A DNA stretch of 63,892 nt, filler included. It is 7 parts of 7 records of this genome, joined end to end, with 100 filler letters (N's around TTAATTAATTAA, not from the genome) between each part and the next. Parts side by side here need not be neighbours in the genome. Positions count along the whole stretch, not along the records: positions 42,523 to 52,957 come from SRR31156797_14295; 6 more parts are not named here. One strand, given 5' to 3'. The stretch's first letter is position 1. Each line of letters opens with the position of its first letter. The notes beneath the pieces were generated by a model that saw only the letters and a list, made by a program, of their open reading frames with translations, was not told where the DNA came from and did not search any database. Positions 8,176 to 58,201 of this stretch are shown here, one piece after another. The translations under genes were made by a program, and so were the position numbers.

Positions 8176-8275
8176 NNNNNNNNNNNNNNNNNNNNNNNNN
8201 NNNNNNNNNNNNNNNNNNNTTAATTAATTAANNNNNNNNNNNNNNNNNNNNNNNNNNNNNNNNNNNNNNNNNNNN
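8176..8275. other. Artificial contig linker
   Basis: 44 N + TTAATTAATTAA (stops in all six frames) + 44 N. Confidence 0.99.
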
Positions 8276-26961: not shown

Positions 26962-27061
26962 NNNNNNNNNNNNNNNNNNNNNNNNNNNNNNNNNNNNNNN
27001 NNNNNTTAATTAATTAANNNNNNNNNNNNNNNNNNNNNNNNNNNNNNNNNNNNNNNNNNNN
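26962..27061. other. Artificial contig linker
   Basis: N44-TTAATTAATTAA-N44; abrupt AT-rich to GC-rich switch. Confidence 0.99.
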
Positions 27062-36179: not shown

Positions 36180-36279
36180 NNNNNNNNNNNNNNNNNNNNN
36201 NNNNNNNNNNNNNNNNNNNNNNNTTAATTAATTAANNNNNNNNNNNNNNNNNNNNNNNNNNNNNNNNNNNNNNNNNNNN
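36180..36279. other. Artificial contig linker
   Basis: N44-TTAATTAATTAA-N44. Confidence 0.99.
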
Positions 36280-42422: not shown

Positions 42423-42522
42423 NNNNNNNNNNNNNNNNNNNNNNNNNNNNNNNNNNNNNNNNNNNNTTAATTAATTAANNNNNNNNNNNNNNNNNNNNNN
42501 NNNNNNNNNNNNNNNNNNNNNN
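42423..42522. other. Artificial contig linker
   Basis: N44-TTAATTAATTAA-N44. Confidence 0.99.
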
Positions 42523-42727
42523 CGGAAAGAAACAGATAGCGATCCGTGCTCAGGGACTCTTCAACGGCCTTGATGGATTTTTCCCGGCCCACAAACAAAG
42601 GCAGAAGCATGTCCGTAAAAATAACGACATCCCTGACAGGCATCATGGGAAGTGTCGTGGGGATATCATTGAGATTCCCCTCTTTCTCTATTATTTCGAT
42701 AAGGTCATCCATATCGGTCTCTGCCAT
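42523..42727 (-). CDS. lon: Lon protease, 5' fragment
   Basis: LPMMPVRDVVIF..MLLPLFVGREKSIKAVE (Lon N-domain). Confidence 0.88.
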
Positions 42728-43054
42728 TTGAACTCCTTTTAGTTACTCTTTGATTACGTTGACACTTACAATAAATCATTTTTCCTGGTTTACAATGTCA
42801 CTTTCGCTTTTTTTTATCACAAAAGCCCCTTCCCCCAGGGCGAACGCATGTACATTATTGGATCATATGATTTCAGCATGCTATGCGGCACAAGGTAAAC
42901 GCTACCCCAAGTATCAGCCAACCTAACCAACCGTAAATCTTGGGATCAATACTCCTGCCAGAGTTACATGCGTTTACCCGATCCCTTTCCCCGACTTGAC
43001 TTCAAACGGGGAAAAAACTATGAAAGGGGATATGACCTTACCAAGGAGAAAAGA

Positions 43055-43831
43055 ATGTCCATACCCATAAGCGTAAACCTGATCGTCTTTTTTACAGGCG
43101 CCTGCATCGGAAGTTTTTTGAATGTCTGCATTTACAGGATCCCCCTCCACCGATCCATCATCTACCCGGGATCCGCATGTCCCAACTGCAAAAAGGCCCT
43201 GCCCTTTTACCTGAACATCCCCATTGTCAGTTATCTCCTGCTCAGGGGAGCGTGCAGATTCTGCCGGACCCCCATCTCGCTTCGCTACCCCGCAGTGGAA
43301 GCCCTGACAGGCTTTCTGGCCCTGGCCCTGGTGCTGAAATTCGGCCTGACCCTGACGACCCTCTTCTGGTTCACCTTTACCGCCACCCTTGTGGTAATCT
43401 CCTTCATCGACATCGATTTCCAGATCATCCCGGACACCATCTCCCTTCCCGGCATCGTGGTATTTGCCTCAGCGGCATGGTTTGTCCCGGAAACCCGTTT
43501 TATGGATACGGTGATCGGCATCCTGGCCGGGGGCGGCATCCTCTACATGGTCGCGCTTGCTTACTACATGCTCAGAAAAGAGGAAGGCATGGGAGGGGGC
43601 GACATCAAGCTCCTTGCTATGATCGGCGGGGCTGTGGGCTGGAAAGGCGTCTTCTTTACCCTGTTTGTCGGCTCGCTTCTCGGAACCATAGGAGGAATTG
43701 TGATCATGATACTTACTAGGCTTGCGGATATCAAACTAAAAATACCCTTTGGTCCCTTCCTTTCAGCGGCAGCCGTACTCTACATTTTTTTTGGAAACAC
43801 CCTGATCCGCTGGTACCTCGGAATTTTATGA
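43055..43831 (+). CDS. pilD: Type IV prepilin peptidase
   Basis: GSFLNVCIYRIP, two CxxC, IDIDFQIIPD, GMGGGDIKL, PFGPFL; start ATG 43055 after AAGGAG. Confidence 0.93.
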   Translation: MSIPISVNLIVFFTGACIGSFLNVCIYRIPLHRSIIYPGSACPNCKKALPFYLNIPIVSYLLLRGACRFCRTPISLRYPAVEALTGFLALALVLKFGLTLTTLFWFTFTATLVVISFIDIDFQIIPDTISLPGIVVFASAAWFVPETRFMDTVIGILAGGGILYMVALAYYMLRKEEGMGGGDIKLLAMIGGAVGWKGVFFTLFVGSLLGTIGGIVIMILTRLADIKLKIPFGPFLSAAAVLYIFFGNTLIRWYLGIL

Positions 43832-43868
43832 GGCCGCCGGTTGGAACAGGACAAAACCTGCTCAGCGG

Positions 43869-44327
43869 TTACGAATAACACACCTCTATAACCATGCTTC
43901 CCTTTGTGGTCGCGAACGGAAGGGCAAGCACCGTCCCCCCATCGACATGGTCAATGGTATGATCCTTACCAGTCCTGACTTCGTCCAGCTTCACCCGGAC
44001 GGTCTTTCCCATCTCGGTCATCTTGGTTGTCACGTGACCCGATATCATATTACTGATCTCGCCCACGGCATCGTTGATCTCTTCATCCATTTCCGTCATC
44101 TCCTCACCAAACATGGCGGAGACAATCCCGAGTATGCTCTTCTCAGTAAAGCTCACAGAGGCCGATCCGGTGATATCTCCTGAGATTGAAAGGGTTCCTG
44201 AGATATCCCCCCTGGCCCGGACATCCCTTTTCACGTAAGGAGAACCGGGTCTTACCTTCACAGAGGCCGTCGTATCAAGGATGTAGAGGGTTCCCTCGAT
44301 AAACGGATTAACCATTGCTGCGTCCAT
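43869..44327 (-). CDS. cheX: Chemotaxis phosphatase CheX
   Basis: VNPFI, DAVGEISNMISG (ExxN). Confidence 0.9.
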   Translation of the reverse strand: MDAAMVNPFIEGTLYILDTTASVKVRPGSPYVKRDVRARGDISGTLSISGDITGSASVSFTEKSILGIVSAMFGEEMTEMDEEINDAVGEISNMISGHVTTKMTEMGKTVRVKLDEVRTGKDHTIDHVDGGTVLALPFATTKGSMVIEVCYS

Positions 44328-44630
44328 ATCAACTCCTTTGTTTCATGCATTGTAAGCCCATTTTACGGGCTGTGCAACCCATTATTTGCAAAAAATGCCA
44401 ATAAATACTTGACACCATCTTTCCAAGCACGTAACGTAACGCAAAAAAGCCGGTATTCGGCTCCAATACTGTATTTCAGCACAATTTGGAATTTTTAACC
44501 CGTTACAAGTTATATAGTAAACAAGAACTCAAGTAACCAGACTAGAGAAAAGTTGACACTGATAAGCTGCTTTGCTTAACTATTTATATAATTTTGGTAA
44601 CCTGCTAATGAAAAAAAGGAGTAATGAACG

Positions 44631-44900
44631 ATGAACAAAGGTGATTTAATCAACAAGGTAGCGGAAGTACTTAACAGCAAAAAAGATGCCCAGGCTGCCG
44701 TAGACTGCATTCTTTCCACTGTTACCGATGCACTTGCAGAGAAAGAGTCTGTAACCCTCGTAGGTTTCGGAACATTCAAAACAGCCGAAAGAAAAGCACG
44801 AAAGGGAAGAAACCCCCAGACAGGCAACGAGATCGACATTCCGGCCAGGAACGTACCCAAGTTTATTCCCGGCAAAGCCCTGAAAGACGCTGTGAAGTAA
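44631..44900 (+). CDS. hup: HU DNA-binding protein
   Basis: MNKGDLI, GFGTF, GRNPQTG, PKF.PGKALK. Confidence 0.95.
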
Positions 44901-44994
44901 GCTTCCTGCATTTTGAGTACAACCAGATTCAGGCAGCACTGTGTCCAGCCGCATGCTGCCTGAAGATCATCCATCCGTAGAACACCCGGTAACC

Positions 44995-45756
44995 ATGACC
45001 CATACCATTGAAAAAATATTCAACCCGTCCGTTGGGGTGGAAATCGTCTTCAACCTGAGTTCCCTGACCCCCTCTTCCATGCCGTCCATCATCTACGATG
45101 TGGACCACGCCCGGAAGCAGATCGTTATTGCCCAGTCGCTGATTCCGATCAAACCGGCCACGGTTCCGAAAGAGGTTCACCTGACAACCCTCGTCAAGGA
45201 TAAAAAGGGCAACAAACGGGTGGGGATCAAGTGCAAACCGGTCAAATTCGACAACAATTACAGGCTGTCAAGCAACAATGCGGTCAGTGCCATCACCGTT
45301 GAATACGAACCCGGCATCATCGACACCAACATTCGGGCGGGATATCGGCTCCCCCTGACAAAAAAGCACAAGATCAAGGCAAAGCTGAACCACAAGGGGA
45401 TCAACTACACCTCCGGGAAAGAATTCTTTATCCTGGACATCTCCCTGAGCGGCGTTGGCATTGTCATCCCCAAAACCATCAACAAGGGCAAACGCAACCC
45501 CCTGACCCGGATAGAACGTGGAGAACACGCAAAGATAGGCATCATCTTCATCAATGAAGAAGACGCAAATAAGAACATCACCATCCCCTCCATCATCCAG
45601 ATCGCTCGGGTCAACACCAACTACAGCGAAACAAGAATCCTTGCGGGCACGAAATTTGTGGGACTCAAGCCCGTAATAGAAGAAGAACTCAACAGATTCA
45701 TCCACAAGGCACAGATGGAAGACCTGCAACGCCTCAGCGGGCTTGGCGAGGCCTGA
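44995..45756 (+). CDS. PilZ-domain c-di-GMP-binding protein
   Basis: RAGYR (RxxxR) and DISLSG (DxSxxG); start uncertain. Confidence 0.75.
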   Translation: MTHTIEKIFNPSVGVEIVFNLSSLTPSSMPSIIYDVDHARKQIVIAQSLIPIKPATVPKEVHLTTLVKDKKGNKRVGIKCKPVKFDNNYRLSSNNAVSAITVEYEPGIIDTNIRAGYRLPLTKKHKIKAKLNHKGINYTSGKEFFILDISLSGVGIVIPKTINKGKRNPLTRIERGEHAKIGIIFINEEDANKNITIPSIIQIARVNTNYSETRILAGTKFVGLKPVIEEELNRFIHKAQMEDLQRLSGLGEA

Positions 45757-47172
45757 TCACAGGGTTGTAAGGTAGACATCCAGCCACTCCAGAATCGCTT
45801 CCTGCTCCCCGTCAAGTCCTCCCTTCTCCCTGATGGCGTCGATCTCCCCCCGGGCGGAATCACAGGTCAGCTTCACATCGTTGCGATATCCGCGCACAGG
45901 ATCGGCAGAAACAGAGGAACGGAGCCGGTCCAGATACTCGCCATGCTCCGCAAGAACCCGGGACGTCGCCTGGCCCGGAAAATTCCTGGCCACGATCCGT
46001 TGGGCAAGGTCCTTCACCCGGGAAGATGAGATCCCGCTGCATACCCCCATCTTATCCTCAGCGGATGCCTGATGAAACACCCCCATATCCACCTTATCCT
46101 GCCTTGAGAAAAACCCGGTTTGATAGAGGGAGGCATCAAGATCAAGATCCGGCACAAACGGGTATTTAAAGTCCCGGTGGTGGATCACCAGTCTCTGAAA
46201 TTCATCCGGATTACCCTGGATCAAAGCGAGATTGGCTTCACACCGGTTTCGCTGCTCCAGGGTCAGACGGTCCCAGAACCGGTCCAGGGGCGGAAGCACG
46301 ATTTTTGCCTCACCATAGCGTTTTCGAATAACGAAGGGGCCGTTCCCGGCATCGGGATCAAAGGGAAGAATCTCGGCATTGTCGAGCCGTAGCCAGAGAC
46401 TCTGGTTGGAGTAGGCTGTTGAATGCCCCAGACTGACCACCGGCGCCATGAACATGAGATCGCCGCCAAACGAAACAGAGACCATGATACAGACCCGGTG
46501 CCTGCCGAACACCGATTGAAATTTTTCATCGATCGCCTCAATCCTTGCCTGATCCTTTCGCTTGTCGAAAAAATCGAGACAGTAGCTCCACATAATCGTC
46601 TCTTCAGCGAGGCGCCTGGCGAGCTCGAGGGTGGCCTCCACATCGGTCATGGCATCATGGGCCCTGCCCGATTGAACCAGGTTGTTTTCCTGGCTTATCA
46701 ACTCGAGCTTCATGGAGGGCTTGCCATCCCGCTCCGGCCATCGCACCGGGCCGGGCTTAAAAACCCGGTAAAGGGTCGCGATGGGAAGCAGATCCATACG
46801 GCCGCAGCCGTTGGCATACTGGTGGGAATAAGGATCCAACAGATTCCTGTAAAAGGCGAATCGCAGGAATTCGTCATCAAACCCGAGGGTGTTGTAACCG
46901 ATACTGATGGTTCCGGGCGTATTGACAATCCCGTGAATGACGGTCATCGCCTCGTATTCGCAGAGGCCGGATGCCAGATCATCCATGGTGAGCCGATGAG
47001 TAATAAAGGCTCCGGGGGAGGGAACGATATCGGGACGAAGGGACACCGTGACGGAATAGCGGTCAATCTCGTTCAGCGCCATGTCCGTCCGGATGGCGGC
47101 AAAGGTCAGCACCTGATCAAAGGCCGGGCTGAGCCCACTTGTCTCGATGTCGTAAAAAAGAAGTGTCTTCAT
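45757..47172 (-). CDS. sbcB: Exodeoxyribonuclease I
   Basis: FYDIETSG, GYN..FDDEF.R..FYRNL.DPY, AHDAM.DV (DEDDh). Confidence 0.88.
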   Translation of the reverse strand: MKTLLFYDIETSGLSPAFDQVLTFAAIRTDMALNEIDRYSVTVSLRPDIVPSPGAFITHRLTMDDLASGLCEYEAMTVIHGIVNTPGTISIGYNTLGFDDEFLRFAFYRNLLDPYSHQYANGCGRMDLLPIATLYRVFKPGPVRWPERDGKPSMKLELISQENNLVQSGRAHDAMTDVEATLELARRLAEETIMWSYCLDFFDKRKDQARIEAIDEKFQSVFGRHRVCIMVSVSFGGDLMFMAPVVSLGHSTAYSNQSLWLRLDNAEILPFDPDAGNGPFVIRKRYGEAKIVLPPLDRFWDRLTLEQRNRCEANLALIQGNPDEFQRLVIHHRDFKYPFVPDLDLDASLYQTGFFSRQDKVDMGVFHQASAEDKMGVCSGISSSRVKDLAQRIVARNFPGQATSRVLAEHGEYLDRLRSSVSADPVRGYRNDVKLTCDSARGEIDAIREKGGLDGEQEAILEWLDVYLTTL

Positions 47173-47177
47173 AAATT

Positions 47178-47216
47178 AAAAAAAGGGACCGGGCATGAGA
47201 ATGCCCGTCCCTTTTT
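47178..47216 (-). terminator. Intrinsic terminator after rpsI
   Basis: GGGACGGGCAT/ATGCCCGGTCCC stem with a T run on the minus strand. Confidence 0.75.
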
Positions 47217-47239
47217 CCAAAACAGATAACAAGAGATCT

Positions 47240-47635
47240 CTATCTCTTTGAGAACTGAAAACGGGCCCGTGCACCCTTCTGACCGTATTTTTTACGCTCT
47301 TTGACCCGGGCGTCCCTGGTAAGGCAGCCGGCTTTCTTGAGCACGCCCCTCAGCTCGGGATCCGCAAGGACGAGAGCCTTGGTGATACCGTGCCTGACAG
47401 CTCCGGCCTGTCCCATGATACCGCCGCCAAGGACAGTCACGTTGATATCGAAGGCATCCTTTTTGTCAGTGAGCTCCAGGGGAAGTTCAAGGGCTTCCCG
47501 GGCAGTATTCAGGACAAAGTACTCATCGAGTGCCTTGTTGTTGACTGTGATTTTACCGGTTCCGGGCGTGATCCATGTTTTTGCCACGGAACATTTTCTC
47601 TTACCAGTAGCGTAGTAGATATTTTCGTTTTCCAT
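47240..47635 (-). CDS. rpsI: 30S ribosomal protein S9
   Basis: YATGKRK, GGG..GQAGA, ERKKYG, QFSKR. Confidence 0.97.
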
Positions 47636-47661
47636 AAAGTATTTCCAGTCCCTTTTATAGA

Positions 47662-48105
47662 CTAAATTTCAAGCGTCTCAGGCTGCTGAGCGGCATGGGG
47701 ATGCTCTGCACCAGCATAGACGTACAATTTGTTGTTAAGCTTTCTACCGAGCCTGTTCTTGGGAAGCATTCCCCGTACAGCCTTGCGAACCAGCTCTTCG
47801 GGTTTCTTTTCCAGCATCTCTTTTGCAGTGGTGGCCTTCAGGCTTCCGGTGTATCCGGAGTGACGGTAGTAAGTCTTCTGATCCCACTTGTTCCCAGTAA
47901 GTTTAATTTTGTCTGCATTGACCACGATAACCCAATCCCCGGTGTCTGCGTGGGGGGTAAACAGAGGATTGTGCTTACCTCTGATCCGTGCAGCAACTTC
48001 TGAGGCAAGCCTGCCAAGGACTTTGTCTTTGGCATCGACCACGCACCAGTTCTCTTTGTTGTCAGCTCTTTTCGCGCTATATGTATATTTTTTCAATTTT
48101 CTCAC
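47662..48105 (-). CDS. rplM: 50S ribosomal protein L13
   Basis: VDA..VLGRLA, GKH.P.FTPH.DTGD, GMLPKN, HPHAAQ. Confidence 0.97.
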
Positions 48106-48168
48106 GCTCCTGTTCGTAAAATAATTTGAAACAACTACTCCATTATCATAAAAATGTCAAGTGCTATT

Positions 48169-48576
48169 TTAAAGTTCAATCTTCTTGCCGACCCCTGCCC
48201 GGGCGTCGGATTTACCGTTTTTCCCGGTCTCCAGGGCCATCTTCCGGGAAGTCTTGCAGGTAACCTCGGCATTCAGAATGCCGCCGTTTTCGACAATAAG
48301 ATCCTTGCACTCCACCTTTCCGGCACAACTTCCCGTTGAAAGGATGATCAACTCCTTGGAGGCATAGATATCCCCCTCAAAACTGCCGCCGATGGTCATA
48401 CTCGTGACCCTGGCATCCGAGTGGACGTCGCCGTCTTCAGCAATGATGACCGTTTCCCCCTCGATGGCACCCCTGAGGCTCCCCTTGATGATCAGCTTTC
48501 CGCGGCTCACGATCGAGCCGTCGATCTTCAGTTCCCTGTCTATGATCGACAGGTTCATTCGCTCCTTTTTTCCCAC
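48169..48576 (-). CDS. Bactofilin (polymer-forming cytoskeletal protein)
   Basis: SII....IDG.I...G.L.I.G...G.I beta-helix repeats through LIVENGGILN. Confidence 0.88.
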   Translation of the reverse strand: MGKKERMNLSIIDRELKIDGSIVSRGKLIIKGSLRGAIEGETVIIAEDGDVHSDARVTSMTIGGSFEGDIYASKELIILSTGSCAGKVECKDLIVENGGILNAEVTCKTSRKMALETGKNGKSDARAGVGKKIEL

Positions 48577-48577
48577 G

Positions 48578-50089
48578 TTATTTCTCCTGACCTGTAGAAG
48601 GTTTTAAATCGATGTACAGCCTGCCAACCTCGGTATCTCCCTGGGTTGTCACCACATAGTAGTGCCTGCCCTTTTGATGCATGGAGTAGCGTTTCATCAA
48701 AACATCTTTACTTGTATCCACGACATAGCCCCGGTCCTCGCCGGTGTTGACGCTTGGATTACCCACAAACCCCTTGAAGTTGACCGTGAAATCCGAAGGG
48801 TCTTCTCCCGGGGTGACAATATCCTCAATCTCAAAGGTATCCCCGACGACCAGTTCCACATGTTCGTTATTCCCCACCTCCAGGCGCCTGGAGTTAATCT
48901 TGATCCTGTAAACCATGGGGGCGTCCTTTTCAACGAACTCCGACACAATGGGCCGGTCTCCCGGGACTGCCGTCTCAGACTTGAAATCAAGATACACGCT
49001 TCCGCATGGATAGAAATCTTTTTTTCCGACGATCCTTGTTTCCTGTTCAACCCTGACCTTTCTTCCCATATCGTTGAGCCTGCTGCCAAGCCCGACGATA
49101 TCAACGCTCAATCCCCGCTCGTAGTTGACCTCCATATCCAGGACCTCCACAGTGTCATTGGGCTGGACCTGGAGATGCTGGCCCTTCATGACAACCACGG
49201 GAACGGAGCCGTTCACCGAAATGATCATATATTTGAGCTCCGGCTTTTTAAGGTCCACCCCCGGGGTCTCGGGCACGATGTTGAGCAGCTCCATGAATCC
49301 GTTGATGGCGTAGATGTGCTGGCGAACCTTCTGTTCCAGGGGAAGCGCCTTGGCACTCTCGACGCCGAAGGCGGGAATCTTTGCCTTATAAAGCGCATAA
49401 TAGGTGGCGGATTTCCGCTGTTCCTGATGAATGGAATCCTTTTCCCGGGTCATATGGTTGTTGAAATGAAAAAAATGATCCGGATTCCTGATATGGGCAT
49501 TTATCTTGCGAATCACCGCCTTGGCCATGGCCTCAAGATCAATGACTTCACCGGTTTTCGGAGATTCGAACGTCCTGGCGTCGGCAATGATGGACTGGCC
49601 GAACCGGGAGGGATTTCTCATGGAATCTTCCCATTTTTCACTGTATATCCCGGATCCTTCATGGAGGTTCAACAGGCAGTCGCTCTCATGAATCAGCTGC
49701 TTGAGCACCTTGACCACCTTTGCCTCATAATTGGCAACATGATCATCTGCGAATTTACGATTCATATCCTCGTTCACCTTCCGCTTCTGCTGGAGAATGG
49801 AAGGGAAATTGGCCCGGGGCACGACAATGAGGTTTCCGGTTTCAAGTGAAAAATCAGCATAAAGATCCGCGGCCAGAAAGCCTCCGGGCTCATCCCCCTG
49901 GATACCGCCGATAAGCAGCAGGGTTTTTCCGGGTTTTGCGCCGTAAACCCTGTAGACATGAAGCTCGTTGTCGCTGCCTTCGTAAAACACGGTGTGGGTG
50001 GTTTGGGCATCCGCCGGCCCGAAGACCAAGCAACACCCCAGAACACCGGCCACCATGATCAGGCAATATTTAAAACAGAGGTTCATCAT
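48578..50089 (-). CDS. M99/M14-like peptidoglycan carboxypeptidase, Csd4/Pgp1-like
   Basis: Signal peptide; GGIQGDEPGG (Gln-type Zn motif), DMNRKF, LNLHEGSG, FGQSII, FGVES; beta-rich C-terminal domains. Confidence 0.82.
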   Translation of the reverse strand: MMNLCFKYCLIMVAGVLGCCLVFGPADAQTTHTVFYEGSDNELHVYRVYGAKPGKTLLLIGGIQGDEPGGFLAADLYADFSLETGNLIVVPRANFPSILQQKRKVNEDMNRKFADDHVANYEAKVVKVLKQLIHESDCLLNLHEGSGIYSEKWEDSMRNPSRFGQSIIADARTFESPKTGEVIDLEAMAKAVIRKINAHIRNPDHFFHFNNHMTREKDSIHQEQRKSATYYALYKAKIPAFGVESAKALPLEQKVRQHIYAINGFMELLNIVPETPGVDLKKPELKYMIISVNGSVPVVVMKGQHLQVQPNDTVEVLDMEVNYERGLSVDIVGLGSRLNDMGRKVRVEQETRIVGKKDFYPCGSVYLDFKSETAVPGDRPIVSEFVEKDAPMVYRIKINSRRLEVGNNEHVELVVGDTFEIEDIVTPGEDPSDFTVNFKGFVGNPSVNTGEDRGYVVDTSKDVLMKRYSMHQKGRHYYVVTTQGDTEVGRLYIDLKPSTGQEK

Positions 50090-51024
50090 TATCCCTTTGA
50101 TTGTGCGAGAGCCATATCCCGCTGGAACATCAAGCCACCTTCTTCGTCATAGACAAACACGGTGGCGGTTTTAAAGGAGTCGGGCGCAAACTGCGTCTTC
50201 ACCCTGAAATTGACGGGTTTGAAATGGGCGATGGAAAAGTATTGCCCCTTCCTGTGAACAGCGGGTTTCCCCTTGTCCATGGCGACCGAGGGAACCACCA
50301 GCCAGTCATTGCCGGCCCCGGTATCGGACTTGAGAATGACATAGATATAGCCGGAAATATTGCTCGAACCAACGGCTATGTTCCTGATATCAAAGCGCAC
50401 AAGCAAATCACCATTATTACCGTCCCGAATCACCTTGAGCCCCTCGACACCGATCTTTTTCGGCTGATTTTTCACCACTTTGGCAGCCGGCTCGGCCTTC
50501 TTTTTCTCCACCTTGGGCTGGGACTTGGGCTTGGGCCGGCTATTTTTCTGCTTCTTTGCCGGTTCCGGCTTGACCGCTGTCACCTTGCTGCCGGGCTTAA
50601 CCTTGGCCACGGGGGCGGCACTCTTTTTCACCGGGGCTTTACCGTCATTCCCGGCAGGTTTCTTCGCCTGGGCCCCAAAAGCAGCAAGACCCGCATCTTT
50701 GCCGGACAACACCAGGCGGGCCATGAGAATCTCCTTCTCGCTGACAAGCTGTTGCACCCGCTTCTCCTGGGCGGCAAGACGCCGGGTCAACTCTGACTGT
50801 TCAGCCCCGGACCGTGTGTAAAAATAGGCAAACGCGCCTGCGGTTGCTGTTGAAAAAAACGTCAGTATCACCAGGAGCCTGACAAGGGGCTTGATCCAGG
50901 CAGCCGAAGCGATCTCCCCTATTTCATTGATGAAGTAGAGCTCTGTCTTGATCTTTCTTTTGGCCGGAACCGGCCGAGAGTGAGCCTTTAGTTCTTTTTC
51001 CAGCTCTCTCGATATATCTTCCAT
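50089..51024 (-). CDS. Bitopic membrane protein with coiled coil, K/P/A-rich linker and C-terminal beta domain
   Basis: Single TM near residues 45-68, coiled coil, low-complexity linker; overlaps both neighbours. Confidence 0.75.
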   Translation of the reverse strand: MEDISRELEKELKAHSRPVPAKRKIKTELYFINEIGEIASAAWIKPLVRLLVILTFFSTATAGAFAYFYTRSGAEQSELTRRLAAQEKRVQQLVSEKEILMARLVLSGKDAGLAAFGAQAKKPAGNDGKAPVKKSAAPVAKVKPGSKVTAVKPEPAKKQKNSRPKPKSQPKVEKKKAEPAAKVVKNQPKKIGVEGLKVIRDGNNGDLLVRFDIRNIAVGSSNISGYIYVILKSDTGAGNDWLVVPSVAMDKGKPAVHRKGQYFSIAHFKPVNFRVKTQFAPDSFKTATVFVYDEEGGLMFQRDMALAQSKG

Positions 51025-52331
51025 ACCCCCTCCTCTTGAATCAACACTAACGTTTTCACTCCCTTCTCCTTGAAATGGTCCGCCCGATAATCCTGGAGAA
51101 ATGAGACAACACTCCGGTTTTTCCCCTTTTCTATCTTAAAGCTGCTTCCAACCACCCGAATGGTGCCGTATCTCCGGGCAAGCCTGCGCTTTCTTGCAAC
51201 CCACCGGCTTTTGTTCATCCCGTCGGAAAAGAACTTTTTAGAATAAAACCCGGCATAGGTTTTCATATCCTTTGAAGACCAGGCAGCAAGCCAGCCATCC
51301 ACGGACTTCTGCAGGGAGCTACCGAGGCTCACATCCCGATAGAGCCCCTTGGCGGCGGAGGCGATCAGACCGGTATCGACGGATTTCCCCTTGGGAAAGG
51401 CCTGAAACAGGTCCCCTGTAATGCGGTAGGCATCATCGATTTTTTTGACAAAAAGCTTTCGTTTTCCAAGGGCGACCCGCCGTTCTTCAAGCGTAACCCC
51501 CATGTCGAAGAACAGGACAAAAACGTTCTTTTCCCTGTAAATTCCGGGGGAATCAATGGAGATCCGAAAGTCAAGGTCTTCCCCGGCCGCCTGATTTCTC
51601 AACTTCCACCACTGATTCCACCATTGGATATTCGGAAGATAACCGGGATCATACAGGGAGAGATACTCCTGGTATGTCCCTTCTTCAATGGCCCGGCCCC
51701 AGGTGGACACAAGAGAAAGCAGGGCCCGGCGCTCCCGGTCGATTGTGTCAGGCGCCGCATAGGAGATACTGTCCACCATGACCACCGGTGTAGCCCCGGT
51801 GGAGATATGCTCGGCAAGCCGAAGGATATCCTTGTCTTTCATGGCCACGCAGCCGTTGGAATCCATGGGTTTCAATTTCTTATTGGTTCCGTGGAGCCAG
51901 ATGGCATTTCCGTTCTTTCCCTCCTGCCGGTCCATAAGATTGGGGTAGTCCGTGGGAAACGCCTTTTTACCGTAGACCGGGGAAAGATAGCGGTCCTCAT
52001 ACTCATCGGTCAGGAAATAGACCCCTTCCGGTGTTTTTTTATCCCCGGACTTGAATTTATTTCCCGCGGCGGCGCCGGTGGAGCACGGCACCCTGAAACG
52101 CTCATACACCCCTTCGCTGTTTGACGAATAAAGGAATACCTGCTGGGAACTCTTTTCCACCAGAACGGCATTGATATTCATGGGTAAAAGAACCAGGGCA
52201 TCGGGCCATTGGGCCGCATCACCAGGCTTATCCACTGCTGCAAACGCCGTATTTGCAGTATTGTCACCCCCAAGCAACACTCCGACCAGAACAAGGCAGA
52301 TCCCTGCCGCTCTTCCAAAACACGACTTCAA
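50988..52331 (-). CDS. YkuD L,D-trans/carboxypeptidase with two NTF2-like domains, Csd6/Pgp2-like
   Basis: Signal peptide; GDKKTPEGVY, AIWLHG...SNGCV (catalytic His/Cys); two W..AW...Y..FY repeats. Confidence 0.85.
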   Translation of the reverse strand: MKSCFGRAAGICLVLVGVLLGGDNTANTAFAAVDKPGDAAQWPDALVLLPMNINAVLVEKSSQQVFLYSSNSEGVYERFRVPCSTGAAAGNKFKSGDKKTPEGVYFLTDEYEDRYLSPVYGKKAFPTDYPNLMDRQEGKNGNAIWLHGTNKKLKPMDSNGCVAMKDKDILRLAEHISTGATPVVMVDSISYAAPDTIDRERRALLSLVSTWGRAIEEGTYQEYLSLYDPGYLPNIQWWNQWWKLRNQAAGEDLDFRISIDSPGIYREKNVFVLFFDMGVTLEERRVALGKRKLFVKKIDDAYRITGDLFQAFPKGKSVDTGLIASAAKGLYRDVSLGSSLQKSVDGWLAAWSSKDMKTYAGFYSKKFFSDGMNKSRWVARKRRLARRYGTIRVVGSSFKIEKGKNRSVVSFLQDYRADHFKEKGVKTLVLIQEEGVWKIYRESWKKN

Positions 52332-52334
52332 TTC

Positions 52335-52957
52335 TTAAAACAACTCCATCTGATAGTTAATGCCAAGATGTTCGTAGGCTTCGGCCGAAGCCTTGCGACC
52401 GGCCGAGGTGCGCATCACCATACCGATCTTAAGCAGGTAGGGCTCGACCACATCCACCAGGGTATCTGTCTCCTCCTGGAGGGTTGCCGACACCGCCTCG
52501 ATGCCCACGGGGCCGCCCCTGTAAAATTCGATAATTGTCTTCAGATAGTTCCGGTCCAGCACGGTGAGCCCCTTGGAATCGATACCTTCAAGATTCAGGG
52601 CCGCCTCCACGCTCTTCCGGGTGACCTCCCCCCCGGAACGAACCATGGAGTAGTCACGGACACGTTTCAGGAGCCGGTTGGCAATCCTGGGAGTTCCCCT
52701 GGACCGCCTGGCCAGTTCAAGGGCGGCGGTATCGTCCATGGTAATCCCCAACAGCGAGCCCGACCGCTTGACAATGGTGACAAGCTCTTCATCGGTGTAA
52801 AAATCCAGGCTCCTGAAAATGCCGAACCGGTCCCGCAGGGGGGATGAAAGCAGCCCCACCCGGGTGGTCGCCCCCACAAGGACGAACCGCTTCAGCTGGT
52901 AGCGGTGGCTCCTGGCATGGAGCCCCGTGTCAAAGACAAAATCCACGGCAAAATCCT
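52335..52957 (-). CDS. ruvB: Holliday junction helicase RuvB, 3' part
   Basis: [42 protein letters not shown]. Confidence 0.96.
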
Positions 52958-53057
52958 NNNNNNNNNNNNNNNNNNNNNNNNNNNNNNNNNNNNNNNNNNN
53001 NTTAATTAATTAANNNNNNNNNNNNNNNNNNNNNNNNNNNNNNNNNNNNNNNNNNNN
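52958..53057. other. Artificial contig linker
   Basis: N44-TTAATTAATTAA-N44. Confidence 0.99.
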
Positions 53058-58101: not shown

Positions 58102-58201
58102 NNNNNNNNNNNNNNNNNNNNNNNNNNNNNNNNNNNNNNNNNNNNTTAATTAATTAANNNNNNNNNNNNNNNNNNNNNNNNNNNNNNNNNNNNNNNNNNN
58201 N
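58102..58201. other. Artificial contig linker
   Basis: N44-TTAATTAATTAA-N44. Confidence 0.99.

Follow-up and report, generated by a model that had tools for sequence, protein, structure and literature searches.

Bd1075 of Bdellovibrio bacteriovorus, the protein of structure 7O21, was described in 2022 as an LD-carboxypeptidase that gives the cell its vibrioid curvature; its NTF2 domain directs the enzyme to the convex face, for which Tyr274 and Trp303 are required (PMC8938487). According to the available text of that paper, the placement of Bd1075 on one cell side has no known mechanistic basis, and no neighbours coding for a Peptidase M99 protein, a bitopic protein or a bactofilin are mentioned there. 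In Campylobacter jejuni, Pgp2 generates the substrate for Pgp1, and pgp1 and pgp2 lie at separate loci (PMC3961634), as the original prediction on the DNA studied here had stated. The related genes csd4, csd5 and csd6 of Helicobacter pylori are also treated as separate loci in the available text of the literature on that organism. Here, we analysed a stretch of 63,892 nucleotides (nt) of DNA, referred to as the window, in which genes for a YkuD protein, a bitopic membrane protein, an M99 carboxypeptidase and a bactofilin adjoin one another. We consider it slightly better than an even bet (roughly 55%) that these four genes constitute a single conserved module, probably co-translated, which trims peptidoglycan stem peptides and to which the bactofilin is tied via the bitopic protein.

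Homologues of Pgp1/Csd4 were reported from curved or helical epsilon- and delta-proteobacteria in 2012 (Frirdich et al. 2012, PMC3310789; Sycuro et al. 2012, PMC3310797). In Nitratiruptor, Nautilia, Persephonella and the delta-proteobacterium Desulfococcus oleovorans, pgp2 lies immediately next to pgp1, and this neighbourhood, seen via STRING, was part of the clue leading to Pgp2 (Frirdich et al. 2014, PMC3961634). The D. oleovorans neighbourhood contains the same enzyme pair as the window, and neither the bitopic gene nor a bactofilin is mentioned for it in the available text of that paper. How a cytoplasmic bactofilin steers changes of the periplasmic wall is still debated (PMC9507126). In H. 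pylori, the bactofilin CcmA is brought to the envelope by Csd5, a transmembrane protein without enzymatic function that shares a shape network with Csd4 (PMC9507126). LmdC, an M23 peptidase of bitopic topology studied in Hyphomonas neptunium and Rhodospirillum rubrum, binds BacA through a cytoplasmic β-hairpin, and many species have lmdC beside bactofilin genes (Pöhl et al. 2024, PMC10945521).

The window is made up of seven separate pieces with paired 44-N spacers between them, and the G+C content varies from about 25% to 60% across the pieces. The four genes are located in piece 42523-52957, directly after a 3'-partial ruvB, in which the NCBIfam RuvB models cover residues 131-328 of 330 and which is truncated by the end of the piece, the N spacer beginning at 52958. 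Downstream of the bactofilin gene, the same run continues with rplM, rpsI and the gene for exonuclease I (sbcB). A listing of open reading frames (ORFs) agreed with the original prediction in all coordinates and junctions (Table 1), and the four gene identities it had given, namely a YkuD protein with two NTF2-like domains, a bitopic protein, an M99 protein and a bactofilin, held in Pfam, hhalign and hydropathy analyses. The closest relatives of the M99 protein were proteins of Desulfobacteraceae metagenome-assembled genomes (MAGs), at no more than 92% identity. Since the window is made of joined pieces, statements at the level of a genome are valid for piece 42523-52957 only; the earlier description as Desulfobacterales-like is supported for this piece by the M99 relatives and does not extend beyond it.

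Using the M99 alignment to scan a single genome of each species, we obtained 437 genomes with a relative and translated the ORFs around the gene in the best 80 of the 437; these ORFs were searched with the eight proteins encoded in the window from ruvB to sbcB. The order ykuD, bitopic gene, M99 gene, bactofilin gene was kept in all 80 loci as far as the contigs reach, with the exception of one locus, L069. A bactofilin gene followed the M99 gene in 78 of the 80, and the remaining two contigs stop within 57 bp; the bitopic gene preceded the M99 gene in 77, the other three contigs stopping within 111 bp. The ykuD gene preceded the bitopic gene in 69 loci, ten further contigs ended too early, and only L069 was truly without ykuD. 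At the position where ykuD would be expected in L069 there are about 500 bp (L069:5313-5830), and a search of the 15-kb locus for a homologue of the gene was negative. The full four-gene order is present in L073, a MAG labelled Desulfosudis oleivorans, a name that we take to be the current one for Desulfococcus oleovorans. The junctions were also conserved: ykuD and the bitopic gene overlapped by the same 37 nt in 61 of the 69 loci holding both genes, and the spacing from the bitopic gene to the M99 gene had a median gap of 2 nt, with a 4-nt overlap as the commonest form (20/77). In L055, L068, L070, L077, L079 and L080, ruvB and/or rplM were missing despite room on the contig, the neighbours inspected were unrelated genes, and the four-gene core was retained. 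Identity to the window proteins fell as low as 51% for M99, 34% for YkuD, 33% for the bactofilin and 23% for the bitopic protein. The arrangement is thus conserved far more than chance would allow, and the unit put forward from a single sequence proved to be a conserved one in these genomes. Because the core is kept with changed flanks, tight junctions and low identities, these results are good evidence that the four genes represent a conserved functional module whose translation is probably coupled.

The YkuD protein was predicted to be a periplasmic LD-carboxypeptidase of the Bd1075/Pgp2/Csd6 kind with a signal-like N-terminus; in a hydropathy scan, this protein and the M99 protein each had a single N-terminal hydrophobic segment. 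In a PDB search, its best match was 7o21 (E 1.7e-42), followed by 6xj6 (Pgp2, 1.8e-18) and 4xzz (Csd6, 4.5e-15), and the earlier characterization of the set as Helicobacter/Campylobacter-type was therefore too narrow. The match to Bd1075, its closest solved relative, covers both the YkuD and the NTF2 domains, the second stretch corresponding to residues 340-445. With the offset set by the catalytic His, His141 and Cys156 of Bd1075 align with H147 and C161 of the window protein, and the targeting residues Tyr274, in the NTF2 pocket, and Trp303, at the C-terminus, align with Y415 and W444, so that both the catalytic pair and the targeting pair have equivalents. Among 32 aligned Desulfobacterales YkuD sequences, H147, C161 and Y415 were invariant and W444 was at least 90% conserved. 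Csd6 and Pgp2, which are more distant than Bd1075, share the layout of a YkuD domain and a C-terminal NTF2-like domain, and have a single NTF2 domain. In contrast to these, the window protein has an additional NTF2-like domain between YkuD and the C-terminal NTF2-like domain. When scanned alone against Pfam, this middle domain gave no match; in a profile-profile comparison (hhalign) it was aligned with the C-terminal region at a probability of 96.9% and E 1.6e-10 over 107 columns, which shows that the description as a protein with two NTF2-like domains was correct. The middle domain, which is absent from Bd1075, sets the window protein apart from all three solved relatives, and we found no published account of this second NTF2-like domain in the open-access literature. 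The 37-nt overlap with the bitopic gene encodes the end of the C-terminal NTF2-like domain, including W444, together with residues 1-12 of the bitopic protein (MEDISRELEKEL).

The M99 protein belongs to the Csd4/Pgp1 family (Peptidase M99) and was predicted to act as a DL-carboxypeptidase in the periplasm. Csd4 entries were its best PDB matches (4q6m, 3.9e-35; 4wck, 5.8e-35), covering the catalytic domain only, and the stretch GIQGDEPGGF is identical in the two proteins. With residue roles as assigned in the structural study of Csd4 (PMC4220969), the metal-binding Gln46, Glu49 and His128 correspond to Q64, E67 and H143 (QxxE...H), Arg86, Asn93 and Arg94 to R103, N110 and R111, and the general base Glu222 to E244. 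All seven residues were invariant in a 20-sequence alignment. The window protein accordingly shares with Csd4/Pgp1 the catalytic domain and its metal motif, the two key Arg residues and the Glu that acts as general base, and the earlier view that the metal-binding and catalytic residues are retained was borne out. The window protein exceeds Csd4 in length by about 65 residues. The top Foldseek match of its AlphaFold2 model, a weak one, was Csd4 4wck (E 7.6e-25, 485 columns, TM-scores 0.36/0.43), and the model was better in the two β-rich C-terminal domains than in the catalytic half. The C-terminal 224 residues (280-503) had no Pfam match, and among five distant relatives Peptidase_M99_C reached the cut-off in one (L079, 27.4 bits vs 27), fell below it in two and was absent from two. 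Since the TM-scores are low, the C-terminal part is without a Pfam match and the occurrence of Peptidase_M99_C is patchy, a likeness to the three-domain layout of Csd4, with its C-terminal immunoglobulin-like domain, is not established and is no more than probable.

Variation in length and labelling was seen among M99 relatives. In a more distant clade (L063, L068-L071, L073, L074, L076, L077, L079 and L080) the M99 ORFs are 600-721 amino acids long and extend about 40-130 residues past the end of the window protein; the sole Pfam match on the extension was a sub-threshold phage-tail match in L070 (18.1 bits vs a cut-off of 23). One source gives the label 'sulfur carrier protein ThiS' to two full-length homologues, P0045 and P0064. 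Probably the label is an annotation error; alternatively, it may reflect a β-grasp-like middle domain.

The bitopic protein belongs to no family in Pfam or NCBIfam, and a hydropathy scan detected one internal hydrophobic segment at residues 47-68, approximately. An AlphaFold2 model built from a 36-sequence alignment had a mean predicted local distance difference test score (pLDDT) of 78 and the layout given in Table 1: a short, predicted cytoplasmic N-terminus with a β-hairpin, a transmembrane helix continued by a coiled-coil-like stretch, a linker and an immunoglobulin-like (Ig-like) β-sandwich. In 45 diverse family members with a mean column identity of 19%, four elements were conserved: the MEDxxRxLEK N-terminus, the hairpin consensus WxLLxVxDxG, EKExLMARLV and GQYFSI..FK. 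Gly36 of the hairpin was invariant among 36 sequences and at least 90% conserved among the 45. The same order of cytoplasmic β-hairpin, transmembrane helix and periplasmic coiled coil is described for LmdC in the available text of PMC10945521; this likeness, which is between a predicted layout and a published description, and that to Csd5 had not been noted in the original prediction. LmdC ends in an M23 endopeptidase domain, whereas the last domain of the bitopic protein is a β-sandwich of non-enzymatic character, and the hydrolases are here secreted as proteins of their own. Likewise, Csd5 has a C-terminal SH3 domain where the bitopic protein has the Ig-like β-sandwich, and neither SH3 nor M23 ranked among the 25 Pfam families that were matched most often by 36 family members at E <= 1. 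From the N-terminal layout of LmdC and the role and topology of Csd5, the bitopic protein is proposed to be an adaptor joining the bactofilin to the periplasmic enzymes or to the wall.

The best Foldseek matches of the β-sandwich were generic Ig-like folds, namely ApaG, Fn3-like domains of GH3 enzymes and SoxZ. The Pfam matches of the 36 members at E <= 1 were scattered and sub-threshold, the most frequent being DUF4577 in 4 of 36. A weak lead to DUF6776 (score 0.81) in an Atlas feature search was not upheld by Pfam on the same 36 members; otherwise that search returned just unnamed Thermodesulfobacteriota clusters, and residues 1-110, compared with the named clusters of the Atlas, had no usable match. 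A search for fused forms of 642-2000 amino acids, itself weak evidence, found none. A word-based search retrieved 326 relatives, the named ones all being 'hypothetical' save one JGI record labelled GroES, and their organism labels were Desulfobacter-type, delta-proteobacterial or generic Proteobacteria/Pseudomonadota MAGs. In an exhaustive search, the family comprised 1298 representative clusters at E <= 0.001, 931 at 1e-10 and 468 at 1e-30. Two relatives, P0282 and P0373, have two copies of the β-sandwich, and P0360 has a LysM domain at 162-205, which fits a periplasmic, wall-facing C-terminus. A complex prediction of the bactofilin with residues 1-45 of the bitopic protein, run without controls, scored 0.00 and is evidence for neither side.

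The bactofilin matched Pfam Bactofilin (DUF583) at 74.5 bits against a cut-off of 27.9, with the β-helix domain at residues 10-105. Just nine residues stand ahead of the β-helix, and behind it a variable tail leads to a conserved ...IEL C-terminus. No hydrophobic segment was detected in the hydropathy scan. Its PDB matches were weak (6ria and 2n3d, Thermus bactofilin and BacA, E about 1e-3), with no CcmA chain among them. The ...K-x-IEL end (window 48169-48190), found in most of 36 aligned bactofilins, resembles a short docking motif, and it is absent or altered in the most distant loci (L018, L055, L069, L073, L079 and L080). Comparison of the IEL tail with the N-terminal motif of the bitopic protein, by eye across both alignments, revealed no clean co-variation, and this idea was dropped.

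Table 1. Features of the window that bear on the four-gene set (positions count along the whole window; residues are those of the encoded protein).
Feature	Position	Strand	Size or residues	Details
N runs	8176-8275, 26962-27061, 36180-36279, 42423-42522, 52958-53057, 58102-58201
ruvB, 3' part	52335-52946 (ORF), open to piece end 52957	-		Pfam AAA_lid_4, RuvB_C, RuvB_N
YkuD protein	50988-52331	-	447 amino acids	TTG start, 3 nt past ruvB stop
YkuD catalytic domain	51780-52169	-	residues 55-184	Pfam YkuD 75 bits; His147 and Cys161
Middle NTF2-like domain	51408-51731	-	residues ~201-308	hhalign to C-terminal NTF2-like domain
C-terminal NTF2-like domain	51006-51314	-	residues 340-442	Pfam Cds6_C 67.3 bits (cut-off 27)
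ykuD/bitopic overlap	50988-51024	-	37 nt	out of frame, dual-coding
Bitopic membrane protein gene	50089-51024	-	311 amino acids	37-nt overlap with ykuD
Predicted cytoplasmic N-terminal region	50893-51024	-	residues 1-44	helix 6-15; β-hairpin strands 30-32/38-40
Long helix (predicted)	50701-50892	-	residues 44-108	transmembrane ~45-70, then coiled-coil-like stretch with conserved EKExLMARLV
Linker	50458-50700	-	residues 109-189	low-confidence, variable, Lys/Ala/Pro-rich (22 Lys in 81)
C-terminal β-sandwich (predicted)	50107-50457	-	residues 190-306	pLDDT >90, Ig-like, conserved GQYFSI..FK motif
M99 protein gene	48578-50089	-	503 amino acids	1-nt overlap with bitopic gene
M99 catalytic domain	49274-49927	-	residues 55-272	Pfam Peptidase_M99 152.5 bits
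Two β-rich C-terminal domains of M99 protein	48590-49237	-	residues ~285-500	AlphaFold2 secondary structure
Bactofilin gene	48169-48576	-	135 amino acids	1-nt gap after M99 gene

Taken as a working model, the inferred enzyme activities, protein contacts, localization and effect on shape would fit together as follows. The secreted YkuD protein would take the terminal D-Ala off tetrapeptides as an LD-carboxypeptidase, as do Bd1075, Pgp2 and Csd6, and the secreted M99 enzyme would then take meso-diaminopimelic acid off the resulting tripeptides as a DL-carboxypeptidase, as do Csd4 and Pgp1. The bitopic protein may tie a cytoplasmic bactofilin polymer to the envelope, its cytoplasmic β-hairpin region binding the bactofilin as in LmdC and its periplasmic β-sandwich holding the enzymes or the wall. 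A candidate surface for docking is provided by the extra NTF2-like domain of the YkuD protein. Trimming would thereby be confined to a zone and would set the cell shape (curvature) or local properties of the wall. The stricter form of this model, a full physical chain from a bactofilin filament through a new adaptor with an LmdC-like hairpin and an Ig-like domain to both carboxypeptidases, with the duplicated NTF2-like domain used for docking, is a tentative proposal that we hold to be rather doubtful.

Several observations weigh against the model of a bactofilin-tied trimming module. All of the best 80 loci come from a single order, Desulfobacterales, and the full eight-gene run from ruvB to sbcB is intact in 47 of them, so that the adjacency is in part due to relatedness. 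L069 has ruvB, the bitopic gene, the M99 gene and the bactofilin gene, yet it has no ykuD. Counts of promoter- and terminator-like sites were the same as in shuffled sequence, so that gene spacing alone supports the operon structure. In the M99 protein, Csd4 His126 is replaced by Asn141, and the AlphaFold2 model has a mean pLDDT of 65.6 and is poorest in the catalytic half. For the bitopic protein, a Foldseek search of the model against the PDB gave nothing at E <= 0.001 (best E 2.2e-3), and the conserved N-terminal MEDISRELE sits inside the dual-coding overlap, so that its conservation may stem from the overlap and is not independent evidence for a binding motif. The genera carrying the cluster include oval and straight as well as curved forms, which makes a strict link to curvature doubtful; a literature search on the morphology of these genera yielded papers on Vibrio and Bdellovibrio alone.

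The first two of these points, together with the persistence of the rest of the set in L069, also fit a different explanation, in which the two enzymes perform general, unlocalised trimming of stem peptides (for example for the pool of cross-link donors or for turnover), the other two genes serve other purposes, and the cluster is inherited synteny, as the likewise conserved order of ruvB, rplM, rpsI and sbcB would suggest. That pgp2-type genes are not confined to curved bacteria (PMC3961634) is consistent with such a general role. On the other hand, the four-gene core persists in the six loci without ruvB and/or rplM, where the inspected neighbours are unrelated, its junctions overlap or span few nucleotides, and the bitopic family was met solely in the four-gene context. 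In addition, bitopic proteins link bactofilins to wall hydrolases elsewhere (PMC9507126, PMC10945521). We therefore regard mere synteny as unlikely, if still a serious contender.

Two further explanations concern the role of individual partners. The bitopic protein might regulate or stabilise a peptidase, as Csd7 does for Csd1, or anchor the bactofilin alone to the wall, and not be an adaptor that positions enzymes. It has no enzymatic domain, one homologue bears the wall-binding LysM domain, and Csd7 and Csd5 are non-enzymatic membrane proteins acting by stabilisation or wall binding (PMC9507126), all of which would suit such a part. This explanation and the adaptor model require the same first contact with the bactofilin, and our results fit both; we give this explanation a low probability. 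The YkuD protein, for its part, might be a cross-linking LD-transpeptidase or an enzyme that attaches or detaches lipoproteins; it has the YkuD fold with His and Cys, and NCBIfam gave a weak match to LdtF/DpaA. However, that match, at 32 bits, is far under the cut-off of 365, and each of the three best solved relatives is an LD-carboxypeptidase of the YkuD-plus-NTF2 layout. LD-transpeptidases typically have Arg or Asn at the position after Gly-Cys-Val, where the window protein has Ala, the same as in Pgp2. A transpeptidase or lipoprotein-directed function is accordingly very improbable, and the Pfam, NCBIfam and PDB comparisons support the original assignment, which placed the YkuD protein among the NTF2-bearing LD-carboxypeptidases, apart from the named LD-transpeptidases.

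Elsewhere in the same piece, window 42968-45756 encodes a prepilin peptidase (A24), a CheX phosphatase, HU and a 271-amino-acid ORF with a sub-threshold PilZ match; these motility- or signalling-type neighbours have no evident tie to the four-gene module.

The original prediction had considered the module undescribed in this group. This does not hold for the enzymes: the presence and pairing of the two trimming enzymes in the delta-proteobacterial group is not new, because homologues were published in 2012 (PMC3310789, PMC3310797) and the pgp1-pgp2 pairing in 2014 (PMC3961634). For the other two genes it stands as far as the open-access literature goes, in which we found no report that puts a bactofilin or this bitopic protein in a pgp1-pgp2 cluster; open-access papers on bactofilins with Desulfo- organisms included none about cell shape, as judged by title, those listed for bactofilins with Csd4 and Csd6 held no Desulfo- term, and a search for M99-bactofilin gene clusters led to a single review-type article, on H. 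pylori biofilm. What the locus offers is a conserved operon that unites two published families of shape enzymes with a bactofilin and with a new family resembling an adaptor, the bitopic protein representing a large uncharacterised family. With Bd1075, a curvature enzyme from outside Campylobacterota had already been published. The four-gene operon may be a compact ancestral form of the shape system that is scattered in Helicobacter and Campylobacter. The wall-trimming part of the 'helical shape' toolkit appears as standard equipment of abundant marine sulfate reducers and not as a speciality of gut pathogens. With a filament, a membrane-spanning link and both trimming enzymes adjacent in one operon, the locus provides a small, defined set for direct tests of their coupling. 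If the full physical chain were true, it would be the first mechanism for placing trimming enzymes of the Bd1075/Csd6/Csd4 type on one side of the cell, and the cluster may reveal how wall-trimming enzymes are positioned in the cell.

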